Source of the DNA: Chitinophagales bacterium
GTDB taxonomy: Bacteria; Bacteroidota; Bacteroidia; Chitinophagales; JADIYW01
Reading direction: 5' to 3'
Assembly (NCBI GenBank): GCA_023957215.1
Contig: JAMLHH010000001.1
Coordinates: forward strand, 17,383 to 81,382
Length of the DNA stretch: 64,000 nucleotides
Shown piece by piece: positions 36,642-48,264 of the stretch (its first letter is position 1; each line of letters begins with the position of its first letter). Under the pieces are notes generated by a model that made no database searches, was not told the DNA's origin, and worked only from the letters and a program-made list of their open reading frames with translations. The translations under genes were made by a program, and so were the position numbers.

Positions 36642-37699
36642 ATAAAATCTACATCAAATTGGTTTTTGTAGTCCATTAAAAAAGCAAGTCCTTCTTTGGT
36701 GTCCCAATCTTCAAACAATACTTTATAGGTTGTTTTCACAATAGGCACATCCAAATTGAGATGGTTGGCTATTCTATTGCAAATATCCACTGTCCTCAGA
36801 CCTTCAGCGACTTCTGACGAAGTAGAGATAATATTATCCAAAGATTCACCTTTTGCCACTCTATATCCTACCGAGAAATTTCTACTCAGAGGAGAAGTGC
36901 AGGTAGCAATGATATCACCTATACCGGCGATTCCAAAAAAGGCTGATTTTTTTGCACCTAAAGCTGTACCAAGTATCATCATTTCCCGAACACCTCTTGC
37001 AAGTAAAAATGCAACTGTATTTTGACCATAGCCCATACCGTTAAGTGCGCCGGCAGTAATGGCTAATGAATTTTTTAAAACACCTGCAAGCTCTACACCA
37101 AAGATATCATGGCTGGCATAAACTTGGAATCTCTGGCTTTTAATCGAATTTCTGACTTTTGCAATCACCTCATCAAATGGGCTGGCAATAACGGTAGCCG
37201 CAGGTTGGTGTTGGGACAATTCTTTTGCTAAGTTTGGTCCGGAGATACATCCTACTCTTCTGACATTGGTCTCCTGAATGATGAGCTGGCTCATCGTTTT
37301 GATATCACTTAGTCTAAATTCGGGTTCTATCTCCAAAGATGTTTCTACCTGTAAATCTTCTATATCCAAGCCTTTCGTTGTATGTACCAAAAAGTGTTCG
37401 GGTTTCAAGTAAGGTGAAAAACTTTTGAGTGTGGCTCTGAAATGTTTGGATGGAACACTTGGAAAAATGAGATTACAATTATTACAAACCTCTTCTATAT
37501 CGTTACTCGCCGTAATATGATTGTGCAAAGTCTGTCCGGCAGACATTTTTGTTTTATTGATTTCATCAACCTTGTCTGCACGTCTCGAATACAATAAAAC
37601 CGGGCCATTTTCTGCCAAAAGATTAGCGATTGTCGTGCCAAAACTTCCGGTACCAATAACTCCCACGGGCTTTTTATGAGATGTATTTATGTAAGCCAT
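36638..37699 (-). CDS. gpsA: NAD(P)H-dependent glycerol-3-phosphate dehydrogenase
   Basis: 353 aa. Rossmann motif VGVIGTGSFGTTIA and GpsA-type central/C-terminal blocks (GPNLAKE, KNSLAI, GLRT). Its start overlaps the upstream acyltransferase gene by 26 nt. Confidence 0.87.
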   Translation of the reverse strand: MAYINTSHKKPVGVIGTGSFGTTIANLLAENGPVLLYSRRADKVDEINKTKMSAGQTLHNHITASNDIEEVCNNCNLIFPSVPSKHFRATLKSFSPYLKPEHFLVHTTKGLDIEDLQVETSLEIEPEFRLSDIKTMSQLIIQETNVRRVGCISGPNLAKELSQHQPAATVIASPFDEVIAKVRNSIKSQRFQVYASHDIFGVELAGVLKNSLAITAGALNGMGYGQNTVAFLLARGVREMMILGTALGAKKSAFFGIAGIGDIIATCTSPLSRNFSVGYRVAKGESLDNIISTSSEVAEGLRTVDICNRIANHLNLDVPIVKTTYKVLFEDWDTKEGLAFLMDYKNQFDVDFM

Positions 37700-39329
37700 A
37701 GCCTTCTAATCTATTATGGTAAAAAAACAATAATTTTAAATCATCGCTGGTGATATCTCCCTCTTTCGTTCGTCGGATGGGTTTTGCAGAGTGATACATA
37801 CTGACATTTCGGATGCCGTGTTCTATTATCTCTTCTGTATCCAAAGTCATGTGAGGTGCTAATTTCAGTTCTTCTGCATTGTTGAGTCGGTACAACTCGT
37901 CTTTCACTCTATTACAACTGAAAACAAAATCATTCCAAGGGATTCTTCTATCTTCCTCCGTCGTTCTGAGAATGGTAAAAATATCTGTCTCTTTGTGATA
38001 TTTTTTTAATATCTCAAATGCTACAAAAGTGACCAAATGAGAGGAGTAAACCGTGTTAGCTTTTAGATATTTCTTAGTGATGATATCTCCCAACATAGAA
38101 GTGTAAACGTGTTCTCTTTGCGGATCATTGGTGATAAGTCCGTTGTTGGAAAAATAATTTCTAATAGCTATTGTATTTCCAAATTTGTCAATACTGTTAC
38201 CTTCATCGTCAATATCATTGCCAAAAATATCCATAGGCTCACTCAATGAAAGCGTGATATCGGATGCTGAGCCAAATAATTGTCCAAAGAACTTCCATAT
38301 TGCCTTAAATCCTTGTGGCGATTTATCTTTCATAAGATAATGTTCCTTTCCTGTCCTTTTCAGATGTTCGGAAATCAGCGAAGATGCTTCTAAGACAAAA
38401 TGATAGCTCACTGTAAGAGGTACAATAAAAATCTTGTTGGTCTTATCTGATGATTGTGTTTCAAAATGCATACGCTGTGCTTCTAAAACAGTTCCCATCA
38501 ATCCAAGTTTCAGATTGGTATCTAAAGTGCCAGAACGAGAACGGGTTCCCCCCGGAAAAAAAATAGTATGTGCCCCTTTAAAAACATTAATTCTCGAAAA
38601 AGCTTTTAGTGTCTCTAAATAAATAGGATTCTTCTTTCTTCTATCCACCCTATATGCACCAAGATTACCCATGAAGTAACCCAAAATTCTATTGTTAAAT
38701 AAATTGATACCGGCACCATATTGGAAGGCAGGAAGTCCTATCATATCCATACCATAACCTATAATAGCCGAATCAAGATTGCTAAAATGCGTCGGCAGTA
38801 AGATAATAGTCCCTTTGGTGGAAAGCTGTCTGATTTTTTCCACCGGTCCGGTGACAAACAGACGGTCTGTCAGGGTTGTCTGCGGTTTAAAGATGGACTT
38901 GATACCTCCGATAGAAGCGTTGAGTAAACGTCCAAAGAAGATGGGTAAGGTCTGTCTGGCAAACCAATGCAATTTGGGGTCAAAGTTGTTAATAATTTCC
39001 TCACTATACCTTTTGATAATACCTTTTAATATAGGTTCTTCTATTTTATCTTGATTATTTTCTTCAATAGATGATGGGTCGTAAGCACTTAATCTCTTTT
39101 TTATTTTTTCCCAGTATTCAAATTCATCTTCCGGATCGACATCCCAGGGTTCAGTTTTCACCCTGATGCGTTCTAAATATAGTGTTTTTGCCAACAAGTC
39201 TCTTCTTGTTTCACGACAGTTAAGATACTTAAAGCTTTCTTCTATTACATCTTCCAAAACTTCATCTTGATGTCTTGCAATTCTTGCAATAGGCCAATCT
39301 TTTCTATCAGGAATAACATATTTATACAT
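37674..39329 (-). CDS. PlsB/GPAT-family glycerol-3-phosphate (or DHAP) acyltransferase-like protein
   Basis: 551 aa. Acyltransferase block I HX4D (PTHFSNLDS), block II-like GAYRVDRR, and block III FFPGGTRSRSG, which resembles the PlsB/GPAT-type G(G/T)RSR(S/T)G rather than short PlsC proteins. Confidence 0.68.
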   Translation of the reverse strand: MYKYVIPDRKDWPIARIARHQDEVLEDVIEESFKYLNCRETRRDLLAKTLYLERIRVKTEPWDVDPEDEFEYWEKIKKRLSAYDPSSIEENNQDKIEEPILKGIIKRYSEEIINNFDPKLHWFARQTLPIFFGRLLNASIGGIKSIFKPQTTLTDRLFVTGPVEKIRQLSTKGTIILLPTHFSNLDSAIIGYGMDMIGLPAFQYGAGINLFNNRILGYFMGNLGAYRVDRRKKNPIYLETLKAFSRINVFKGAHTIFFPGGTRSRSGTLDTNLKLGLMGTVLEAQRMHFETQSSDKTNKIFIVPLTVSYHFVLEASSLISEHLKRTGKEHYLMKDKSPQGFKAIWKFFGQLFGSASDITLSLSEPMDIFGNDIDDEGNSIDKFGNTIAIRNYFSNNGLITNDPQREHVYTSMLGDIITKKYLKANTVYSSHLVTFVAFEILKKYHKETDIFTILRTTEEDRRIPWNDFVFSCNRVKDELYRLNNAEELKLAPHMTLDTEEIIEHGIRNVSMYHSAKPIRRTKEGDITSDDLKLLFFYHNRLEGYGLHKYIS

Positions 39330-39539
39330 ATCAGAAATTTGACTCTATCAGCTAAGTTATAAGATTTTATAAGTTATTTTATAAAAATGTGAATCCGTAT
39401 CTAAGTTAACACACAGATAAAACAATGAATTTTTTGCATATAGATAATAAAAACGGCAAGGAACTCACGATTTAATATTGTTTTAATCTAAGACTTCTTG
39501 CAAATGAGAAAAAAAATATTTTGATTTGTACCTAAATTT

Positions 39540-39581
39540 ATGAGAAACACATTTTTTTATAGCTATTACTTTAATCTCTAA
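39540..39581 (+). CDS. candidate Phe/Tyr leader peptide MRNTFFYSYYFNL (13 aa)
   Basis: ATG AGA AAC ACA TTT TTT TAT AGC TAT TAC TTT AAT CTC TAA. Six of seven consecutive codons are Phe or Tyr. It lies between a divergent gene start and a terminator hairpin, directly upstream of the Phe/Tyr biosynthesis operon. Confidence 0.55.
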   Translation: MRNTFFYSYYFNL

Positions 39582-39624
39582 TACAAGGGACAAGAAAGGC
39601 TATAGAAATAAATATAGAATACAA

Positions 39625-39652
39625 AGTCCCGAATGTTCGGGACTTTTTTTTT
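39625..39652 (+). terminator. intrinsic terminator/attenuator hairpin upstream of pheA
   Basis: AGTCCCGAA-TG-TTCGGGACT (39625-39644) runs into nine consecutive T (39644-39652). It ends 14 nt before the pheA ATG at 39667. Confidence 0.7.
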
Positions 39653-39666
39653 GAAAAAAATGGATT

Positions 39667-40503
39667 ATGAAAATTTCTATACAAGGATTTAAAGCTTCGT
39701 TTCACGAAATAGCCGCCTATAAATATTTTGGAAAAGAAGTCGAAACCATAGAGTGTGACACCTTCCAAAAGCTTTTTGATTCCATGCAAAAAGATGGAGA
39801 AGCAGATTATGCAGTGATGGCTATTGAAAATTCGGTGGCAGGTTCTATTTTACCTAATTATGCCCGACTGCGGGAAGCAGATTTGGAAATTTTCGGTGAA
39901 ATATATTTGAGAATAGAAATGAATCTGATAGCACTTTCCGGTCAAACAATTGATGATATCAAGGAAGTACATTCACATCCAATGGCATTATTACAATGCG
40001 TTCAATATTTTAGACAATATCCTCATATCCAATTGATAGAGTCCAAAGATACCGCTTTGAGTGCTATTGAAATCAAAGAGCAAAACTTGAAAGGTATCGG
40101 AGCCATCGGTAGCCGTCAAGTAGCAGAAAGTTTTGAATTGGAAATTTTGGCAGAAGGTATTGAGACTAATAAACGAAATTTTACACGGTTTTTAGTTCTG
40201 AAAAGAAGAGGTGATACAGTTCCTTTTGAGTTGGGGACATCTGATAAAGCATCCTTATCTTTTAGAGCATTACACAGACCGGGCAGTTTATCGGCTGCAC
40301 TTTCGGCAATGGCCATTTTTGGAATGAACTTGACAAAAATCCAATCTTTACCCGTATTGGGCGAGGAGTGGGAATACTATATGTATGCAGATTTGGAGTT
40401 TAAGGATTATAGAAGTTATCAAGAAATGTTGAAGGTAGTAGAACCTTTGACCAAAGACTTAAAAATTTTAGGAGAATATTCACAAGGAGAAAAATATTTA
40501 TGA
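39667..40503 (+). CDS. pheA: prephenate dehydratase
   Basis: 278 aa. PDT domain (IQGFKASFHEIAA, NFTRFLVL) plus a C-terminal ACT domain. The stop overlaps the next start (ATGA). Confidence 0.9.
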   Translation: MKISIQGFKASFHEIAAYKYFGKEVETIECDTFQKLFDSMQKDGEADYAVMAIENSVAGSILPNYARLREADLEIFGEIYLRIEMNLIALSGQTIDDIKEVHSHPMALLQCVQYFRQYPHIQLIESKDTALSAIEIKEQNLKGIGAIGSRQVAESFELEILAEGIETNKRNFTRFLVLKRRGDTVPFELGTSDKASLSFRALHRPGSLSAALSAMAIFGMNLTKIQSLPVLGEEWEYYMYADLEFKDYRSYQEMLKVVEPLTKDLKILGEYSQGEKYL

Positions 40504-41666
40504 TTATCCAACAAGCAAGTAGATTAGATTTTATACAAGAATACTATTTCTCAAAAAAATTAAGAGAGATAGCAAAAATGATAAAAGAAGGTAAGCCTGT
40601 TATCAATCTCGGTATAGGAAATCCTGATCAAGCTCCTGCCTCAGAGGTGATAGAAGCAATACAAAAATCAGCTGCCAATGTGAAAAATCATGGCTACCAA
40701 AGCTACAACGGTAATCCGGCTTTGAGAGAGCAAATGTCTATTTGGTATGAGCACACTTATCAGGTAAAATTAAATCCCGAAAATGAGATATTGCCACTTT
40801 TGGGTTCAAAAGAAGGTATTACACACATCCATCAGGCATTTATCAATCTGGGAGATAAAGTATTGGTACCTAATCCGGGCTATCCGACTTATTCTTCCGC
40901 TTCAAGATTGTCCGGAGCAGTACCTGTTTATTACGATTTGGACGAAAACAATGATTGGTCACCGGTTTGGAGTTCTGTTTCAGAAAAAGATTTGGAAGAG
41001 GCAAAAATTATTTGGATCAACTATCCTCAAATGCCGACGGGTGCTCCCGGCAGTCTGAAAATCTTTGAGGAAGCCATTAAAATAGCAAGAAAATACAAAT
41101 TGCTGATTGTCAATGACAATCCATATAGTTTAATTCTTAATCAAGATAAACCTATATCTATTTTCCAAGTTGAAGGTGCTAAAGAAGTGGCGATAGAACT
41201 TAATTCTTTGTCCAAATCACATAACCTCGCCGGAGCGAGAGTGGGCATGATCGTGGGTGATAAAGATTATATCCAGACTATCCTTAAAGTAAAATCCAAT
41301 GTGGATTCGGGCATGTATTTGCCCGTGCAAGACTTGGCGATTGCAGCTTTGAAACTTTCTGATGAATGGCATATTGCGAGAAATCAAGTGTATGCTTCCA
41401 GATTATCTTTGGCAAAAGAGATAATGAGAGCTTTAAATTGTGATTTTCAAGAAAATCAGGTAGGGATGTTTCTTTGGGCTAAAATACCTGATACATACAA
41501 GAATGTTGAAGAGTTGACAGAGAAGGTCTTACAAGAAGCTTATGTATTTATTACACCAGGATTTATTTTTGGCACGAAAGGTGAAAGATATATCAGGATA
41601 TCATTGTGTAGTAAAAACGACTCACTAAAAGAAGCTTTAAGCAGAATCAAAAAACTTGTCTTATGA
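40500..41666 (+). CDS. class I/II aminotransferase (aromatic/prephenate/aspartate aminotransferase-type)
   Basis: 388 aa. NPGYPTY, NDNPY, and the PLP-lysine block LNSLSKSHNLAGARVG. ATGA overlaps at both ends. Confidence 0.85.
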   Translation: MIIQQASRLDFIQEYYFSKKLREIAKMIKEGKPVINLGIGNPDQAPASEVIEAIQKSAANVKNHGYQSYNGNPALREQMSIWYEHTYQVKLNPENEILPLLGSKEGITHIHQAFINLGDKVLVPNPGYPTYSSASRLSGAVPVYYDLDENNDWSPVWSSVSEKDLEEAKIIWINYPQMPTGAPGSLKIFEEAIKIARKYKLLIVNDNPYSLILNQDKPISIFQVEGAKEVAIELNSLSKSHNLAGARVGMIVGDKDYIQTILKVKSNVDSGMYLPVQDLAIAALKLSDEWHIARNQVYASRLSLAKEIMRALNCDFQENQVGMFLWAKIPDTYKNVEELTEKVLQEAYVFITPGFIFGTKGERYIRISLCSKNDSLKEALSRIKKLVL

Positions 41667-42520
41667 AAGTTGCCGTTTTTGGATTGGGATTGATAGGTGG
41701 TTCTGTGGGAATTGATTTAAAAAGACGTGGCTTTGCCAGTGAGATTATTGGCGTAGGACGCACTCTACTGAATATACAAAAAGCACTCGATTTAGGCTTG
41801 GCTGATAGGATGATTAGTAAAGAACAAGCAGTCAAAGAGGCTGATTTGATTGTACTTTCTGTCCCAGTGAATATTCTTGTGGAAGAACTGAAATATGTAT
41901 TGGACAATATGAGACCTGATGCTGTCGTGACAGATATGGGATCTACGAAGTCCAAGATAATCGAAGCCGTACGTACTCATCCTTTGAGAGGCAGATATGT
42001 GGCAAGTCATCCGATGGCGGGTACAGAATACTCAGGTCCAACTGCTGCTTTTTCAGGATTATTTGATGGAAAATTGGCAATTATCTGTGATAAAGAAGAC
42101 TCGGATGCGGATGCTTTGGCATTGATAGAAAAGATGTATTTGGTTTTAGGAATGCATCTACAATATATGAAGTCAAAAGCACACGATTTACATGCGGCGT
42201 ATGTCTCTCATGTTTCACATATCACCAGTTTTGTATTGGGTGCTACCGTTTTGGAAAAAGAAAAAAGTGAAAAAGCCATATTGAGTATGGCAGGTGGTGG
42301 TTTTGAATCTACGGTGAGATTAGCCAAAAGTTCGCCTGAAATGTGGTCTCAAATCTTTGAACAAAACGGAGAAAATATTGTAGAAGTTCTCAATACCTAT
42401 ATTGATAAAATTACCGCTTTTAGAGATAAAATTAAGACAGGAGATACTGAATACCTTAAAAATTTTATGGCACAAGCCAATAATATAAAACGAATTTTAA
42501 AAAAAGAAATAGAAAAATAA
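41663..42520 (+). CDS. tyrA: prephenate dehydrogenase
   Basis: 285 aa. Rossmann motif VAVFGLGLIGGSVG, and HPMAGTE / SHVSH blocks typical of TyrA. Confidence 0.88.
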   Translation: MKVAVFGLGLIGGSVGIDLKRRGFASEIIGVGRTLLNIQKALDLGLADRMISKEQAVKEADLIVLSVPVNILVEELKYVLDNMRPDAVVTDMGSTKSKIIEAVRTHPLRGRYVASHPMAGTEYSGPTAAFSGLFDGKLAIICDKEDSDADALALIEKMYLVLGMHLQYMKSKAHDLHAAYVSHVSHITSFVLGATVLEKEKSEKAILSMAGGGFESTVRLAKSSPEMWSQIFEQNGENIVEVLNTYIDKITAFRDKIKTGDTEYLKNFMAQANNIKRILKKEIEK

Positions 42521-42531
42521 AAACGATAAAA

Positions 42532-43608
42532 ATGGGAGAATTAAACATTGCACCTCTATCATCATGGGGTCTAAAAAAAAAGAGACCTTTAATCATATCG
42601 GGACCTTGTAGTGCAGAATCAGAAGAACAGGTCATAGAAACAGCCAAAGGTCTTGCCGATAAAGGTATAGATATCTTGAGAGCAGGTATTTGGAAACCCC
42701 GTACACGCCCGGGATCTTTTGAAGGTTTGGGTAGAATTGCCTTACCTTGGTTAAAAAAAGCAGGTGAGATTATTGGAAAACCGATTGCGGTAGAAGTTGC
42801 CACCAGAGAACATGTTTTTGACTGTTTAAAAGCAGGTGTTGATATCCTTTGGGTAGGCGCCCGCACGACGGCAAATCCTTTCTCCGTACAAGAAATTGCA
42901 GATGCATTGGAAGGAGCAGATGTTCCTGTCATCGTCAAAAATCCTGTCAACCCTGATTTACAGCTTTGGATAGGAGCAATCGAACGTATCAATAGAGCAG
43001 GCATCACCAGAATAGGTGCTTTGCACAGAGGTTTTTCAACCTATGACAAATCAAAATACAGAAACAAACCGATGTGGGAAATTCCTATCGAATTGAGAAG
43101 ATTGTATCCACAAATACCTATGTTCAATGATCCAAGCCATATTTCGGGCAATAGAGAATTGATTGCTCCGGTGGCTCAAAAAGCATTGGATTTGGACTTT
43201 GATGGTCTGATGATAGAATCACACTGGATGCCGGACAAAGCGTGGTCTGATGCCAGCCAGCAAGTGACACCCGATAGATTGGGAGAAATTATATCAGGAC
43301 TAATTATCAGAGAAGAAAAACCTGAAATTACTACAAACGAACTCGATCAACTTCGCTCTAAAATAGATAGATTGGATAATGAAGTCATTGAGATTTTGGC
43401 TGAAAGAATGGACATTGCAAGAAAGATTGGTGAGTTTAAAAAATCTAAGAATATGACGATACTCCAATCCGGCAGGTGGGATGATATTGTCCATGATAGA
43501 GTACAGAAAGGTACGGCAAAAAAGTTGACAGAAGAATTTATCATGGAATTATTTGAATCCATTCATACTGAATCTATCAGACATCAGACAGCGATTATGA
43601 ATGACTAA
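42532..43608 (+). CDS. bifunctional 3-deoxy-7-phosphoheptulonate (DAHP) synthase / chorismate mutase (CM domain C-terminal)
   Basis: 358 aa. Type I-beta DAHPS/KDO8PS-like core (GPCSAES, GIWKPRTRPGSFEGLG, NDPSHISG), then an AroQ-type CM segment (LDQLRSKIDRLDNEVIEILAERMDIARKIGEFK, about 43339-43605). Confidence 0.88.
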   Translation: MGELNIAPLSSWGLKKKRPLIISGPCSAESEEQVIETAKGLADKGIDILRAGIWKPRTRPGSFEGLGRIALPWLKKAGEIIGKPIAVEVATREHVFDCLKAGVDILWVGARTTANPFSVQEIADALEGADVPVIVKNPVNPDLQLWIGAIERINRAGITRIGALHRGFSTYDKSKYRNKPMWEIPIELRRLYPQIPMFNDPSHISGNRELIAPVAQKALDLDFDGLMIESHWMPDKAWSDASQQVTPDRLGEIISGLIIREEKPEITTNELDQLRSKIDRLDNEVIEILAERMDIARKIGEFKKSKNMTILQSGRWDDIVHDRVQKGTAKKLTEEFIMELFESIHTESIRHQTAIMND

Positions 43609-43692: not shown

Positions 43693-46600
43693 ATGGATAT
43701 GAAATTTTGGCTAATCGCTTTACTCACAATGCTTTCTGTATATCCTACTTATGGCCAGTCTAATCCCGAGGCATATAAGTTGTCAGGAAGTCCATTCTAT
43801 TTTACTAATTGGCCTTCATCATCAGAAGCCGAAACCTTTCCTACCGGTATGGTTTTACAACAATATGACGACGAGGACGATCCTAATAAAAATTCAGAAC
43901 CTATATCAGATTGGATTTGTAACTATAATTTGGAAAGCAAGTCAAGGTTTGTAGGGTTGGGAAACTCAGGCATAGGCTTTTTAAACACCGGAAGTAACTT
44001 GTCAAGAACTGAATGCAATGGTGCTAATGCAGGGAAAGTCGGAGTGGTAACATTAGCAATCAATACAAGTGATATAGAAAATATTGAACTTTCGTGGAGA
44101 GTGAGAATGATTAAGCAAGGAGATGGGTTCCCTTTGCCGAGAGAATATAGAATTACTGCCCAATACCGTTTGGATAGCTCAAGTGCTTGGATGGATTTCC
44201 CTGCTACGAGTCGTTATTCGTCTTTCAATAAAAATGAGGGCAGTATCAAAAATTTTTCTCTCCAACTTCCAAATACTTTTGACAACAAAGAATATGTCCA
44301 ATTCCGATGGAAATATTATCAAGAATCTTCTAACCAAGGAGGGACAAGACCTTTCTTAGCATTAGATGATATTAAAGTAATAGGAGAAAAATCAGATGGG
44401 AACAATACTCCAGTCTTATTTACAGATCAGACGACAATAGGTAGCTTTGGATGTGTAGAAGGTAATTTTTCACAAATTGATTCTATACTTTTCTCAGCAA
44501 ATTTTCTTAAAGAGAATCTCAGTATAGAATCGGATGGTGAGTTTTATATTTCTCTATCGGAAAATGAAAATTATAATCAATCAATACTTATCCAAGCTCC
44601 AAACGGCAAAATAGGTGACACCTATTTATATATCAAAAAGAAATGCTCTTCTATTGGAGAAAAAAAAGGTATTTTAAGTTTTATTTCCGGTAGTCTTAAA
44701 AAGAATTTTGCACTATCAGGAGAAGGCTATTATAAGGTATTTATCAATGAATTAGTAGCTTCCAATTTTAAATCGTATGACGAAAGAGAAATTTACCCGG
44801 ATTGGATAGAATTGTATAATCCGAATGATACCGGCTTTTCTATTGCAGGTTATTATATGTCTGATGATATAAATAATCTAACAAAGCACAGACTCCGGGG
44901 ACCTGAATCATTCATGGAGTCTTATGGTTTTAATCTATTTTTCGCAGATGATTCGCGGACAACGGATAAATATTTACAGTTTAAACTTTCAAATTCCGGA
45001 GAGTCTGTCTTTTTGGTTGGAAAAGATGGGAAGACAATTATAGATAGCGTGACTTTCGGATATCAAAAGACAGATATTTCCTATGGTAGGGAAATTGACG
45101 GTTCTGATAAATGGGTTCAATTTAAGGAGCCTACTCCGGATAAATCCAATAACAATGGCGTAATTCGTTTTGAAAATCAGGCTGATCCTCCGATTTTTTC
45201 TGCTAATGGTGGTAAGTATGAGTACCCCTTTGTGTTAAGTTTAAGCAGCCCTCACCCTGATGCAAAGATATACTATACTATTGATGGGTCAGAGCCAAGT
45301 ATAGATAATTTGGGAGGAAGTGTTTTTGAATATAAGCAGTCATATTATCTAGAACCGGGACATATAACGGAGTCTTACTTTCAGCCATATAGAACTATTT
45401 TTTATTTTGAGCCTATAGAATTGTCTCTATATAAAGATAAGCCATATAAAATTTCAAATATTAGTACGACTTATACGATTGCCCCTTATATACCAAAAAT
45501 AAATAGAAATAACGCAGTTATAATTAGGGCCATTGCAGTACAGCCCAATATGGAAGCGAGCGAAATCATTACCCAGAGCTATTTCTTTTCAAATGGAGAT
45601 CCGACCAAAGATAGTTTACCAATAATCAGTCTCGCTTTAAACCCACATCAATATTTAAGTTTTGAGGACGGAATTGCTGTGCCGGGAAAAGACTATGAAG
45701 ATTGGAGATTTTCGACTCCTATTCAACAAAATACAAACTTTTTGAGACCGGCCAATTTTAATAGAAGGGGAAGACCGGCCGAAATAGCCTCAAACTTGGA
45801 AATTTTTGAAAAAAATAAGCCCTATTTTAATGAAAAAATTGGAATTAGAATTCATGGCAATTCATCAAGAGCAAAGCGTTCTAAGAATATGCGTATCTAT
45901 TCTCGGAGTCTATATGGAAACGAAAAAATAGTTTTCCCCTTTTTTGACAATTTGCCTTATGAAGATTATAAAAGGATACTTTTACGTTTATCTAGTGAGC
46001 GAAAAACTCGTTTTATAGACATGTTTGTCCAACAGATTACCAAATCTCTCAATGTAGATTATCAAGAATATAATCCTTATGTTTTATATATAAACGGTGA
46101 ATATTGGGGAATAGCGAATGCATTAGAAAGAATTGACAAGAATTATTTACAAAGAAAATATGGTTTTGATGATTCTAATTTTGATATGTTAGAGAAAGAA
46201 GGGAGAATCAAACAAGGGAGCAATGCAGATTATCTTCAGTTTATTCAAAACCTAGACTCGATTAATATTAGTTCGGATGAAGGCTATAATTGGCTATATA
46301 GTAAAATGGATGTTGAAAATTTTATAACATATTTTCCATTTAGAATATATACCTCCGATATGGATTGGCCTTTAAATAATATTATATATTGGAAATATAA
46401 TAGCGTCACTAAAAATAATAGAACACCTTATGGGCTAGATGGAAAATGGAGATGGATACATTTTGATAATGATGGAGCATTTAGAGTAGATCCGTCATAC
46501 AACAGTTTAAATGATCTCTTTAAAGAATTTTATATTATAAAAAATGGTGACGGGGAAGATGTCTTTTATGATAATTGGAGTACTACGCTTTTTAGAGCTT

Positions 46601-48264
46601 TGATGAAAAATGATAGAATCAAAATACAGTTTATTACTAGATTTTCAGATATGATTAATACTGTTTACAAAGTTGAAAGAGTACTTAATTTATTGGGTAA
46701 TATTAAGAACCTTTATGAACCTGATATTGAAAATCAAATTGCAAGATGGGAGTATCCATCAACCCTAAGCAATTGGTATTCAAATATCGAAATTGTTAAA
46801 AACTTTGTAACTCAAAGGCCTAATTATTGTTTTGAAAATATGAAAGAATCCTTTCACTTAGGAAGTACTGATTCGGTTTTTATAGATGTCAATGATTTCA
46901 GTATGGGATATCTAAAAATCAACACAATGGAAATCAATGAAAAAACCCCCGGCGTTGATACAGCTCAGGTTTATCCGTGGGGAGGAAGATATTTTAAAAA
47001 TCTACCTGTCACTTTAATACCTCTACCGAGAGATGAATATAGATTTGCTTATTGGGAGATAGACGGTAAGAAGACTGCGACAGATTCTGATACATTGATT
47101 TTTGATTTGTCAAAAAGAACGTCTATAAAAGCTTATTTTGAAGTAGATCCTAATTATATTTACAATCCTGAAGCAGTCAAAATAGATGTATGTCCTTATG
47201 AGTTTGCAGAGTGGAATAAAAAACAAGAAATAGGGACTTATCCCGGTAACATGGCTTTTTATTATACAAGATATCCGGACTCAAGAGCCAATGGCGCTTT
47301 GGAAGGAATCATGGATAGTATCTTATACGATTATTCTTCAAAGACGAGAATCAATGGTCTTGGTGCGAAGGGCTTGTCTTTGATTAATACCGCAACAGCT
47401 AATGATTATTATTATCAAACAAGGTTGGGAGCAGTAGGAGTTGCATTCAATACTATAGATATACCCGGAGCAACAGTCCAATTCACTGTTGGAACTGTCA
47501 AACCTCAATCAAAACAATATGGTATCAGATTACAATATCGCTTTAGCGATAAAGGTGAAGTTTTTGATTTAAAAGATAAAAATGGGAATATAGTCGAGTA
47601 TATAGCCAATGATTTTGCTGATCACCAACAGACATTTAAAATAGAATTGCCTCAGGATTTTATGGGAAGAAAGTATGTACAGCTATTGTGGCGTTACTAT
47701 TTTACCGGTGTGCAAAGATTTGAAGATTCCAAACAAAGAGATGAACTGAGAATTGATGATATTATTATAAAACAGAATGAAATTGCCGGAACCGAGTCCA
47801 AAGAAATGTATAAAAAAACGCTGAACGGGAATCCGCATGGCATTGCTTACCAATGGTATCAATGTGAAGATGATTCATTGAAGTTACTGGAAGGGCAAAC
47901 GAATAGAGATCTCACCATTACACAACCGGGGTGGTATGCATTATCGGTAGATTATGGAGATTGCCAATTTATATCTGATTGCCAGGAATTTTATGTCAAA
48001 GAGCATAAAGACTTCTATCCTAGCATACACACGACTATCATACCCAATCCTTCAAAAGGAATATTTGATTTGGTTTTTGACGAAACAATGAAAGATATTT
48101 CTATTTCAATAGTAGATTTGACAGGTAAAATAGTTCATACAAGATTTGAAAAAGAAGCACGCCAAATAAAATACAATCTAAAAAATTTGGCATCAGGCGT
48201 TTATGTCTTGGATATTAATACAAAAGATGGAAAACAAGCCACAGAAAAAATAGTCATCCAATAA
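43693..48264 (+). CDS. secreted CotH kinase-family protein with lamin-tail (LTD) domain, duplicated flanking domains and a T9SS C-terminal sorting domain
   Basis: 1523 aa. Signal peptide. LTD (VFINELVASN...DWIELYNPND...FKLSNSGESVFL, about 44731-45103). Chitobiase/Fn3-associated-like DAKIYYTIDGSEPS. CotH-like core (about 45610-46720). T9SS CTD (IIPNPSKGIFDL...LASGVYVLDINT...IVIQ, about 48028-48261). Confidence 0.8.
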   Translation: MDMKFWLIALLTMLSVYPTYGQSNPEAYKLSGSPFYFTNWPSSSEAETFPTGMVLQQYDDEDDPNKNSEPISDWICNYNLESKSRFVGLGNSGIGFLNTGSNLSRTECNGANAGKVGVVTLAINTSDIENIELSWRVRMIKQGDGFPLPREYRITAQYRLDSSSAWMDFPATSRYSSFNKNEGSIKNFSLQLPNTFDNKEYVQFRWKYYQESSNQGGTRPFLALDDIKVIGEKSDGNNTPVLFTDQTTIGSFGCVEGNFSQIDSILFSANFLKENLSIESDGEFYISLSENENYNQSILIQAPNGKIGDTYLYIKKKCSSIGEKKGILSFISGSLKKNFALSGEGYYKVFINELVASNFKSYDEREIYPDWIELYNPNDTGFSIAGYYMSDDINNLTKHRLRGPESFMESYGFNLFFADDSRTTDKYLQFKLSNSGESVFLVGKDGKTIIDSVTFGYQKTDISYGREIDGSDKWVQFKEPTPDKSNNNGVIRFENQADPPIFSANGGKYEYPFVLSLSSPHPDAKIYYTIDGSEPSIDNLGGSVFEYKQSYYLEPGHITESYFQPYRTIFYFEPIELSLYKDKPYKISNISTTYTIAPYIPKINRNNAVIIRAIAVQPNMEASEIITQSYFFSNGDPTKDSLPIISLALNPHQYLSFEDGIAVPGKDYEDWRFSTPIQQNTNFLRPANFNRRGRPAEIASNLEIFEKNKPYFNEKIGIRIHGNSSRAKRSKNMRIYSRSLYGNEKIVFPFFDNLPYEDYKRILLRLSSERKTRFIDMFVQQITKSLNVDYQEYNPYVLYINGEYWGIANALERIDKNYLQRKYGFDDSNFDMLEKEGRIKQGSNADYLQFIQNLDSINISSDEGYNWLYSKMDVENFITYFPFRIYTSDMDWPLNNIIYWKYNSVTKNNRTPYGLDGKWRWIHFDNDGAFRVDPSYNSLNDLFKEFYIIKNGDGEDVFYDNWSTTLFRALMKNDRIKIQFITRFSDMINTVYKVERVLNLLGNIKNLYEPDIENQIARWEYPSTLSNWYSNIEIVKNFVTQRPNYCFENMKESFHLGSTDSVFIDVNDFSMGYLKINTMEINEKTPGVDTAQVYPWGGRYFKNLPVTLIPLPRDEYRFAYWEIDGKKTATDSDTLIFDLSKRTSIKAYFEVDPNYIYNPEAVKIDVCPYEFAEWNKKQEIGTYPGNMAFYYTRYPDSRANGALEGIMDSILYDYSSKTRINGLGAKGLSLINTATANDYYYQTRLGAVGVAFNTIDIPGATVQFTVGTVKPQSKQYGIRLQYRFSDKGEVFDLKDKNGNIVEYIANDFADHQQTFKIELPQDFMGRKYVQLLWRYYFTGVQRFEDSKQRDELRIDDIIIKQNEIAGTESKEMYKKTLNGNPHGIAYQWYQCEDDSLKLLEGQTNRDLTITQPGWYALSVDYGDCQFISDCQEFYVKEHKDFYPSIHTTIIPNPSKGIFDLVFDETMKDISISIVDLTGKIVHTRFEKEARQIKYNLKNLASGVYVLDINTKDGKQATEKIVIQ

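Follow-up and report, generated by a model that had tools for sequence, protein, structure and literature searches.

A predicted Phe/Tyr-sensing leader-peptide attenuator upstream of the pheA operon in a Chitinophagales bacterium

How a bacterium adjusts an operon that makes both phenylalanine and tyrosine to the supply of these two amino acids is the question raised by the 337-bp intergenic region at 39330–39666 of the window (the whole stretch of DNA analysed, 64,000 nucleotides). The region is AT-rich (28% G+C), lies between a divergent upstream gene and pheA, and contains an element of ~155 bp, counted from a candidate −33 promoter element to a run of T. The genes that follow it had been described as pheA, an aminotransferase, tyrA and a DAHP synthase/chorismate mutase, and the Pfam domains agree with this content:

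39667–40503, + strand: pheA (prephenate dehydratase), the first gene of the operon (Pfam PDT, E = 3.6e-55)
40500–41666, + strand: class I/II aminotransferase (Pfam Aminotran_1_2), its first 4 nt shared with the end of pheA
41663–42520, + strand: tyrA (prephenate dehydrogenase; Pfam PDH_N/PDH_C), with a 4-nt overlap
42532–43608, + strand: DAHP synthase-chorismate mutase fusion (Pfam DAHP_synth_1+CM_2)

The pheA protein is 100% identical to a Chitinophagales MAG protein. On re-reading, the sequence also agreed with all coordinates assigned to the element in the preliminary description, which had proposed a Phe/Tyr-sensing attenuator of the trp/pheL/his type. This reading is supported by the ORF, terminator and antiterminator, which are present here and conserved in relatives.

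The putative sensor is a 13-codon mini-ORF, ATG AGA AAC ACA TTT TTT TAT AGC TAT TAC TTT AAT CTC TAA, found as described, with Phe or Tyr at six of the seven codons in 39552–39572:

39540–39581, + strand: leader ORF MRNTFFYSYYFNL, stop codon included (direct sequence reading)
39552–39572, + strand: regulatory codons FFYSYYF, about 3–4 Phe and 3 Tyr (sequence and ribosome-position folding)

About 6–7 of the 13 codons of MRNTFFYSYYFNL thus specify the two amino acids that the operon makes. By itself the ORF is only suggestive, because 6 of the 1057 ATG mini-ORFs of 8–45 codons in this window reach the same density of six aromatic residues in seven. Homologues of the leader ORF are found in 17 relatives, forming with this locus a Chitinophagales clade of 18 sequences, and among them TTT and TTC, and TAT and TAC, are exchanged synonymously with retention of aromatic identity, while other changes swap Phe for Tyr. 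The synonymous variation of the Phe/Tyr codons argues for selection on the translated product.

Two candidate promoter elements precede the leader ORF:

39498–39500, + strand: candidate −33 element TTG (conserved spacing; function inferred)
39521–39528, + strand: candidate −7 element TTGATTTG, an imperfect match to the Bacteroidota TAnnTTTG type (conserved TTTG)

The TTG had been proposed previously and is retained, while the −7 assignment moves from TATTTTG (39517–23) to TTGATTTG, since the former is not kept in the 87%-identical relative L161 and the latter is. In 16 of 17 testable relatives, a TTG precedes the conserved TTTG at a start-to-start distance of exactly 27 nt, a spacing of TTG-N24-TTTG. 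Each of the 18 clade members has the TTTG block 4–13 nt before its leader ATG; the distance of 11 nt in this window implies a very short leader 5' UTR. A scan with the sigma-70 consensus, which is unsuited to Bacteroidota promoters, gave no more promoter-like sites than shuffled sequences. Shine-Dalgarno pairing is little used by Bacteroidota. A further upstream mini-ORF, MRKKIF (39504–24), was rejected as a part of the element, being upstream of and overlapping the −7 box and unconserved.

Downstream of the leader ORF, an intrinsic terminator is predicted to end just before pheA:

39623–39646, + strand: intrinsic terminator hairpin, with segment 3 as the 5' arm (39623–32), the loop at 39633–36 and segment 4 as the 3' arm (39637–46) (RNAfold)
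39644–39652, + strand: nine-T run, the U-tract of the terminator (sequence; 6–10 T kept in all clade members)

The hairpin terminator had been recognised in the preliminary description and stands, with a revised geometry: a loop of 2 nt is sterically unrealistic, and RNAfold gives a 10-bp stem, AAAGUCCCGA/UCGGGACUUU (39623–32 with 39637–46), closed by a 4-nt loop AUGU, with an energy of −14.3 kcal/mol. As noted earlier, 14 nt separate the nine-T run (39644–39652) from the pheA ATG at 39667. Compared with dinucleotide shuffles, folding of the 142-nt leader has z = −4.2, the terminator is found in all 17 clade sequences examined, and six of its pairs have changed on both sides in the clade alignment.

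Whether this terminator can be switched depends on the pairing partners available upstream of it, for which the predicted folds give the following segments:

39554–39580, + strand: segment 1, the 5' strand of a protector (anti-antiterminator) helix (RNAfold)
39586–39608, + strand: segment 2, comprising GGGAC (39587–91) and GGCTATAGAAA (39598–608), which pairs with segment 1 or segment 3
39600–39617, + strand: inner antiterminator hairpin CTATA (39600–04)/TATAG (39613–17) (stalled-ribosome fold)

GGGAC at 39587–39591, 5 nt past the leader stop, and GTCCC at 39626–30, part of the terminator 5' arm, are present as claimed, and their alternative pairing is backed by compensatory changes. The outer antiterminator helix is short (5–7 bp), and the antiterminator had been regarded as the weakest part of the proposal. 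This assessment was too pessimistic: the compensatory changes in relatives support GGGAC:GTCCC, and the antiterminator is the minimum free energy (MFE) structure with a ribosome on the Phe/Tyr codons. The helix varies among relatives as GAGAC/GTCTC, GGAAC/GTTCC and AGGAC/GTCCT, with compensation at three core positions. The covariation extends three ways to the terminator arm as GAGAC/GTCTC/GAGAC in L004 and GGAAC/GTTCC/GGAAC in L005, and AGGAC/GTCCT is the form in L081. In the clade, 86% of antiterminator cells are paired, vs at most 44% when the strands are slid. Four antiterminator pairs have changed on both sides, counted in a re-alignment (A5) covering the stretch from GGGAC to GTCCCGA only; this value is matched by 2 of 500 shuffles, a control that overstates significance because the 18 clade sequences are related, and its power is modest because each outer-helix compensatory change occurs in a single sequence. 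With a stalled ribosome, the inner hairpin CTATA/TATAG is predicted in 17 of 17 relatives, with 84% of its cells paired, and none of its pairs has changed on both sides in the clade alignment.

The protector helix, which was missed in the preliminary description, completes the classical logic in the predicted folds, so that 1:2, 2:3 and 3:4 helices are all present. In the RNAfold structure, the Phe/Tyr codons at 39554–64 pair with 39598–39608, and 39575–79 pair with 39586–90. In the clade alignment, six and three pairs of these two helices have changed on both sides, nine in total, and protector and terminator together show 15 such pairs, a value matched by 0 of 500 shuffles. The protector and terminator counts are lowered because the terminator 5' arm is out of register, by one column in about six rows, in the MAFFT and model-based alignments (A2, A4).

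Folding with defined ribosome positions, a check proposed at the outset, gave folds that change with the place of the ribosome: with the A site on any Phe/Tyr codon the antiterminator is the MFE structure of the RNA made so far, and with the A site on the stop codon the antiterminator is occluded. With the ribosome on the last aromatic codon, the antiterminator is the MFE structure in 16 of 17 clade sequences. Once the full leader has been transcribed, the antiterminator (−11.9 kcal/mol) is in every case less stable than the terminator, at −14.3 kcal/mol alone and −17.7 kcal/mol when the inner hairpin is counted, and therefore the switch must be kinetic.

A comparison of orthologous loci, also proposed at the outset, extends these observations beyond the clade. 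A scan of metagenomes with the single protein gave mostly distant relatives, and close relatives were obtained by exact-protein look-ups. Among 126 distinct Bacteroidota pheA upstream regions, with G+C contents from 20 to 61%, a mini-ORF with at least five aromatic residues in seven is found on the sense strand in 117, whereas antisense strands and shuffled sequences gave 2 of 126 each. The mini-ORF is kept even where the nucleotide sequences cannot be aligned. A perfect-stem terminator occurs in 101 of 118 regions with the mini-ORF, and in 72 of these 101 the region left free by a stalled ribosome holds a complement to the terminator 5' arm (z < −2). Distant orders again show the terminator arm AAGTCCCG, and gut-metagenome pheA loci carry leaders such as MNRFSFTYYFYYFYFSRVKAGVCM. 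At the level of sequence comparison, we consider this evidence decisive for the element being real, and a Phe/Tyr leader upstream of pheA appears to be close to universal in Bacteroidota.

These data bear directly on the possibility that an AT-rich intergenic region merely happens to hold a Phe/Tyr-rich mini-ORF and a leaky terminator, the operon being expressed constitutively without switching. Phe and Tyr codons are AT-rich, and the 6 equally aromatic mini-ORFs among the 1057 of the window would fit such a reading. However, the ORF is conserved phylum-wide on the sense strand only, G+C-rich genomes included, covariation is seen in three alternative helices, and it is hard to see what else a terminator would do in a 5' leader next to a divergent upstream gene. 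We consider a chance origin the least probable of the alternatives weighed here, and within the limits of computation the comparative data refute it.

A switch that is real may still have a reader that is not a translating ribosome, for example an RNA-binding protein, uncharged tRNA in a T-box-like manner, or a small molecule, with the Phe/Tyr ORF incidental to a U/A-rich structured RNA. The Phe/Tyr codons form one strand of a conserved helix, so that RNA structure alone constrains part of them, and a tRNA-Trp-sensing element mapped upstream of trpE in F. psychrophilum (PMC9723704) indicates that Bacteroidota use other sensing mechanisms. Such a switch would, however, hardly account for an aromatic ORF running from ATG to stop that survives in 117 of 126 regions despite unalignable sequence and so wide a range of G+C, nor for leader changes that are synonymous or exchange Phe and Tyr, and the Rfam search gave no riboswitch or T-box match at E ≤ 10 within 39000–40000. 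We regard this explanation as very unlikely.

A ribosome-mediated (leader-peptide) attenuator, responding to charged tRNA-Phe and tRNA-Tyr, thus very probably controls the pheA-aminotransferase-tyrA-DAHP synthase/chorismate mutase operon, as judged from sequence and structure modelling. For this locus we infer where transcription starts, that the leader is translated, how termination or read-through comes about and the response to Phe and Tyr as follows. The first transcribed nucleotide is probably a few nt beyond the TTTG (39525–28) of the −7 element, giving a very short 5' UTR to the leader. When Phe and Tyr are plentiful, the ribosome would reach the stop codon (39579–81), where its footprint covers GGGAC (39587–91), and upon its release segment 1 (39554–80) would re-pair with segment 2 (39586–608). 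GTCCC (39626–30) would be left free either way, allowing the terminator (39623–46) to form and RNA polymerase to halt in the T-run, with an expected terminated transcript of roughly 115–120 nt. When either charged tRNA is scarce, the ribosome would stall at 39552–72 and mask segment 1, and segment 2 would then pair with segment 3 (GGGAC:GTCCC plus CTATA/TATAG, −11.9 kcal/mol) while segment 4 has yet to be synthesised. Once formed, this antiterminator would block the terminator and the operon would be transcribed. If translation is absent, the 1:2 helix would form and lead to termination.

The stalling itself may in principle arise from a TnaC-like nascent peptide that senses free Phe or Tyr in the exit tunnel, and the present data fit stalling on tRNA shortage and ligand-dependent arrest alike; alternatively, regulation may act through Rho or through translation initiation at pheA, whose start is only 14 nt from the terminator. 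Yet the peptide outside the aromatic run is unconserved across the phylum, unlike arrest peptides, and sensing at the codon level suits a biosynthetic operon, which has to be induced when its products run short. The conserved canonical GC-rich hairpin with its T-run, and the alternative pairing that tracks the terminator arm, likewise speak against this group of explanations. Arrest-peptide or Rho/initiation control seems slightly less probable even than a switch read without a ribosome, and codon-level attenuation by charged tRNA-Phe and tRNA-Tyr is preferred.

Attenuation of this kind had been thought to be little characterised in Bacteroidota, an estimate of novelty that was too high given an F. 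psychrophilum equivalent with transcriptome support and a prediction in B. thetaiotaomicron. The leader-peptide attenuator of the F. psychrophilum pheA-aspC3 operon has been described with a mapped start site, conditional read-through and proposed terminator and antiterminator hairpins, and expression of the operon is maximal in minimal nutrient media (Guerin et al., 2021, ISME Commun, PMC9723704, supplementary D9 and Table S7). The phylum and the position are the same as for the present element, in that an orthologous pheA-aminotransferase operon follows immediately. The two also share a short leader ORF in which Phe/Tyr(/Trp) codons stand in tandem (MNTNNTFYSNNSFYFYWNIGRDCYMVI in F. psychrophilum) and a GC-rich hairpin that runs into a stretch of T; in F. 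psychrophilum, too, the 3' arm of the terminator is repeated further upstream (GGGATTGT vs ACAATCCC). The two differ in order, in the length of the ORF (27 codons there, 13 here), in the mapped 20-nt 5' UTR before the leader ATG there, and in the location of the antiterminator 5' strand, which lies inside the ORF there and 5 nt after the stop here. Two Flavobacterium loci (L056, L078) have MLNNSTFFYNHSFYFFWRQLRDCCAII-type leaders close to the published F. psychrophilum peptide, and the covariance model of the Chitinophagales clade (R1) matches both weakly, at ~24 bits and E ~0.6–0.7, with the expected location and strand. Common descent of the Chitinophagales and Flavobacterium leader RNAs is plausible from these sequences. 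In B. thetaiotaomicron, an attenuator is predicted ahead of pheA > hisHb > aroA-aroQ > tyrA, as listed from the Merino database in Table 7 of Song et al. (2005, PMC1173090); this is a Bacteroidota operon of the same content, whereas the gene order is different and the entry, as given in that table, is a prediction only and comes without a leader peptide. A Phe/Tyr pheA leader is thus not new in kind, the same kind being already described in other Bacteroidota. Vitreschak and colleagues, writing in FEMS Microbiol Lett in 2004, are also said to mention attenuators in Bacteroidetes/Chlorobi.

In E. coli, the regulatory codons of pheL are all Phe and its control is limited to pheA; tyrA is regulated by TyrR. 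The present leader differs in its mixed Phe and Tyr codons and in preceding an operon with tyrA and DAHP synthase/chorismate mutase, whereas it shares with E. coli pheL-pheA the aromatic codon run, the four-segment 1:2 / 2:3 / 3:4 logic and a terminator just before pheA (pheL mechanism: PMC3082878). At gathering thresholds, no Rfam family matched anywhere in the window. With permissive thresholds on 39000–40000, the best match was Phe_leader (RF01859), spanning exactly 39539–39652 at 37.2 bits and E = 2.3e-4, below the 55-bit gathering threshold, in an alignment with many non-canonical pairs in the stem. The resemblance to E. coli pheL is at best analogy or very remote homology. Mycobacterial leaderless polycysteine short ORFs, reported to be Cys-responsive attenuators (bioRxiv 10.1101/834739), offer a parallel in having a regulatory short ORF at or near the transcript 5' end and in sensing an amino acid through a codon run; they concern another phylum and another amino acid, and the promoter spacing suggests that the present leader ORF may likewise be leaderless or nearly so.

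The Phe/Tyr leader element overturns nothing known. It is a clean, well-delimited predicted example of classical attenuation in Chitinophagales, in which gene regulation is almost unstudied, and in practical terms it is a candidate Rfam family, may help to recognise aromatic amino-acid regulons when metagenome-assembled genomes are annotated, and could provide an amino-acid-responsive expression part for Bacteroidota. A wider reading, to which we give an even chance, is that the leader belongs to an ancient Bacteroidota-wide RNA family absent from Rfam, a dual Phe and Tyr sensor with a (nearly) leaderless mini-ORF and with duplicated tandem copies in certain lineages. Under this wider reading, a single leader would combine the signals of two amino acids to govern both terminal branches and the entry enzyme of the pathway, and the lead ribosome would be tightly coupled to RNA polymerase throughout Bacteroidota. 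Since leader-peptide attenuation needs a ribosome close behind RNA polymerase, its prevalence argues for transcription-translation coupling in this phylum, whose promoters are unusual and whose translation initiation is independent of Shine-Dalgarno pairing.

The sequence at 39498-39669, a candidate Phe/Tyr leader-peptide attenuator, matches its preliminary description on direct reading. The element and its surroundings comprise the following features:

39540-39581, plus strand, leader mini-ORF encoding MRNTFFYSYYFNL
39552-39572, plus strand, aromatic codons FFYSYYF, read from the sequence
39587-91, plus strand, GGGAC, 5 nt past the leader stop codon
39644-52, plus strand, nine-T run 3' of a GC-rich hairpin, ending 14 nt ahead of the ATG at 39667
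37674-39329, minus strand, divergent upstream acyltransferase gene

Because the acyltransferase gene is divergent, the terminator is not its own. The flanking genes also agree with the operon described earlier: four overlapping or tightly packed genes 3' of the leader encode prephenate dehydratase, a class I/II aminotransferase, prephenate dehydrogenase, and a DAHP synthase-chorismate mutase fusion. The PheA of the window is 100% identical to a protein of a Chitinophagales metagenome-assembled genome (MAG). A 1523-aa ORF (43693-48264, plus strand) immediately 3' of the operon carries CotH kinase, lamin-tail, Fn3-associated, and type IX secretion C-terminal sorting domains, as would fit a Bacteroidota origin. 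Folding of the 142-nt leader gives -32 kcal/mol (z = -4.2 relative to dinucleotide shuffles), and the hairpin, previously given a 2-nt loop, has a 4-nt loop and a 10-bp stem (39623-32 with 39637-46) according to RNAfold and a consensus scan.

Judged within the window, the leader ORF by itself is only suggestive, with 6 of the 1057 mini-ORFs that start with ATG and have 8-45 codons attaining six aromatic residues of seven; comparison with relatives is decisive on the question of chance. The pheA loci were drawn from Bacteroidota (80, one genome per species) and metagenomes (80), with further loci of close relatives added by exact-protein look-ups, and were pooled into 126 distinct regions, each 250 nt upstream of pheA. 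A mini-ORF with at least 5 of 7 Phe/Tyr/Trp is kept on the sense strand of 117 of the 126 regions (at least 6 of 7 in 111), as the attenuation reading had predicted for pheA orthologs, versus 2/126 on the reverse complement and 2/126 in shuffled sequences. AT bias does not account for this excess because the G+C content of the regions spans 20-61%. In the pooled leader peptides, Phe makes up 22% of residues, Tyr 16%, and Trp 1%. The leader is followed by a perfect-stem hairpin and a T-run in 101 of 118 regions, and in 72 of these 101 the RNA that a stalled ribosome would leave free holds a complement of the terminator 5' arm (z < -2 relative to shuffled sequences; median -3.2).

Several of the compared loci, numbered with an L prefix, have a tandem pair of leader ORFs rich in Phe/Tyr, for example MKQQTTFGFFGFYYFWYQK then MLQPALGNSFFYYFSYFFYAKKQGTRLQ. 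In L029 (Chitinophaga sp. RAB17, -350..-50 from pheA), L013 (a Bacteroidaceae MAG, -263..-15), and L062 (Hymenobacter fodinae, -324..-35), each leader has its own GC-rich hairpin and T-run, and these look like tandem attenuators. A second such ORF, recorded as an ORF only, also occurs in L026, L034, L037, L045, L047, L054, L064, and L079 and in the Bacteroides-like L012 and L016. The terminator 5' arm AAGTCCCG(A) is near-identical across distant orders (L015, L020, L025, L027, L035, L036, and L041; Bacteroidales and others), which hints that the attenuator RNA is anciently homologous rather than repeatedly reinvented. Four contigs labelled as Cyanobacteriota, Sericytochromatia, or Lentisphaerae MAGs carry a Bacteroidota-like pheA (50-55% identity), likely through mis-binning or horizontal transfer; their leaders are strongly aromatic in L011 and L046 and weakly so in L007 and L032, and that of L011 (-184..-124) is Tyr-only, MNFVNKNYYYYYYTIKKSW.

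Eighteen sequences could be aligned over the full length of the leader: those of the window, L001-L005, L008, L081, and members of L161-L175, whose PheA is 57-87% identical to that of the window. All but L008 were folded, and all 17 gave the same three-state picture. With no ribosome, the Phe/Tyr codons (39554-64 in the window) are predicted to pair with 39598-608 as a protector helix, with an apical stem of CUCU (39575-79) and AGGGA (39586-90), followed by the terminator. When the ribosome is stalled on the aromatic codons, the antiterminator, a predicted outer helix GGGAC(U):(A)GUCCC around a CUAUA/UAUAG hairpin, is in 16 of 17 the fold of minimum free energy for the RNA up to the terminator 5' arm. 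A ribosome modelled on the stop codon covers GGGAC. Predicted energies over the clade are -9 to -17 kcal/mol for antiterminators and -11 to -17.5 kcal/mol for terminators. A codon-by-codon ribosome scan of the window agrees with this picture.

Predicted fold of the nascent RNA in the window, by ribosome position
A site on any codon 39552-39570: antiterminator, -11.9 kcal/mol
A site on the stop codon: inner hairpin only, -2.8 kcal/mol
No ribosome, or A site on the first two codons: protector helix, -15.4 kcal/mol

Once the full leader is transcribed, the terminator is always favoured thermodynamically in the predictions, so switching has to depend on kinetics, as it does in the E. coli trp attenuator.

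The antiterminator has a 5-bp core that co-varies with the terminator arms.

Upstream element, terminator 5' arm, and 3' arm in four relatives
L004: GAGAC, GTCTC, GAGAC
L005: GGAAC, GTTCC, GGAAC
L081: AGGAC, GTCCT, GGGAC (through G-U)
L003: GGGAC (G-U), GTTCC, GGGAC (G-U)

After re-alignment of the GGGAC-to-GTCCCGA stretch, the antiterminator is 86% paired, versus at most 44% with the partner slid by 1-3 columns, and four of its pairs changed on both sides, which 2 of 500 shuffles attain, among sequences that are related to one another and with each compensatory change of the outer helix found in one sequence only. The inner antiterminator hairpin has no double change among the clade sequences. 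In the model-based alignment of the clade, 15 of 30 protector and terminator pairs changed on both sides (0/500 shuffles) and pairing is 77% versus at most 56% when slid, a result that stands although the terminator 5' arm is off by one column in several rows. Within the protector helix, a Tyr codon varying as UAU/UAC is matched by a partner A/G (UA 6, CG 6). The antiterminator, initially regarded as weak, is supported by both folding and compensatory changes with the terminator arms.

Every clade leader has an ATG and an in-frame stop, and its aromatic codons vary synonymously or by Phe-Tyr swaps (TTT 47, TTC 12, TAT 27, TAC 25), a pattern that counts as evidence for translation of the leader. 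The stop position varies; in L005, L081, L171, and L173, the ORF runs through the GGGAC-type element and ends just 3' of it, which remains compatible with the model, since the element would be covered by a ribosome terminating there. The stop position is thus flexible relative to the antiterminator strand. The called PheA proteins of L173 (295 aa; 701-747) and L174 (292 aa; 701-745) begin within the attenuator, in its inner hairpin and upstream of the terminator, with the conserved start about 45 nt downstream, so gene callers over-extended pheA into the leader.

In the window and 17 relatives, a conserved TTTG precedes the leader ATG by 4-13 nt, with a TTG exactly 27 nt upstream (start to start) in 16 of 17 testable relatives. 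This fixed TTG-N24-TTTG spacing, which resembles that of the Bacteroidota -33/-7 promoter type, bears out the proposed -33 TTG at 39498-500; the -7 element moves from TATTTTG (39517-23) to a candidate TTGATTTG at 39521-28. The Flavobacterium psychrophilum pheA promoter entry (supplementary table, PMC9723704) reads ...TAGTATGTTTGTCattc..., with a case change, taken to mark the mapped start, a few nucleotides past TTTG. From the conserved spacing and this entry, we infer a transcription start in the window at about 39530-36, which would leave the leader ORF almost leaderless; given the proximity of TTTG to the ATG, its translation may begin on an mRNA that is leaderless or nearly so.

No Rfam family reached its gathering score on either strand of the 64-kb window (1-64000). 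The best match over the full element was the gammaproteobacterial Phe_leader (37.2 bits against a threshold of 55, E = 2e-4), and many pairs in that alignment are non-canonical. The element would operate as pheL does without belonging to that family. Elements of the same kind have been reported in other Bacteroidota. The F. psychrophilum pheA has a mapped 170-nt 5' region with putative terminator and antiterminator hairpins, read-through in specific conditions, and an operon expressed most highly in minimal nutrient media; its leader element, also conserved among other Flavobacteriaceae, has no Rfam match (Guerin et al., 2021, PMC9723704). An attenuator was also predicted upstream of the Bacteroides thetaiotaomicron operon pheA > hisHb > aroA-aroQ > tyrA (Song et al., 2005, PMC1173090, Table 7), and Ryan et al. 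(2020) remarked generally on short ORFs resembling leader peptides in this species. Our literature search turned up no Bacteroidota attenuator that had been tested by mutation or biochemistry. The leader differs from E. coli pheL in mixing Phe and Tyr, which fits the dual output of the operon; this difference holds as first proposed, but was already visible in the Flavobacterium report.

The attenuator finding is real, and the proposed trp/pheL/his-type attenuation is supported, antiterminator included; it is a known mechanism in another organism and not a new one. The present analysis adds that the leader is near-universal across the phylum, that the upstream element co-varies three ways with both terminator arms, that a protector helix is predicted and the candidate promoter lies near the leader ATG, and that attenuators appear to be duplicated in tandem in some lineages.
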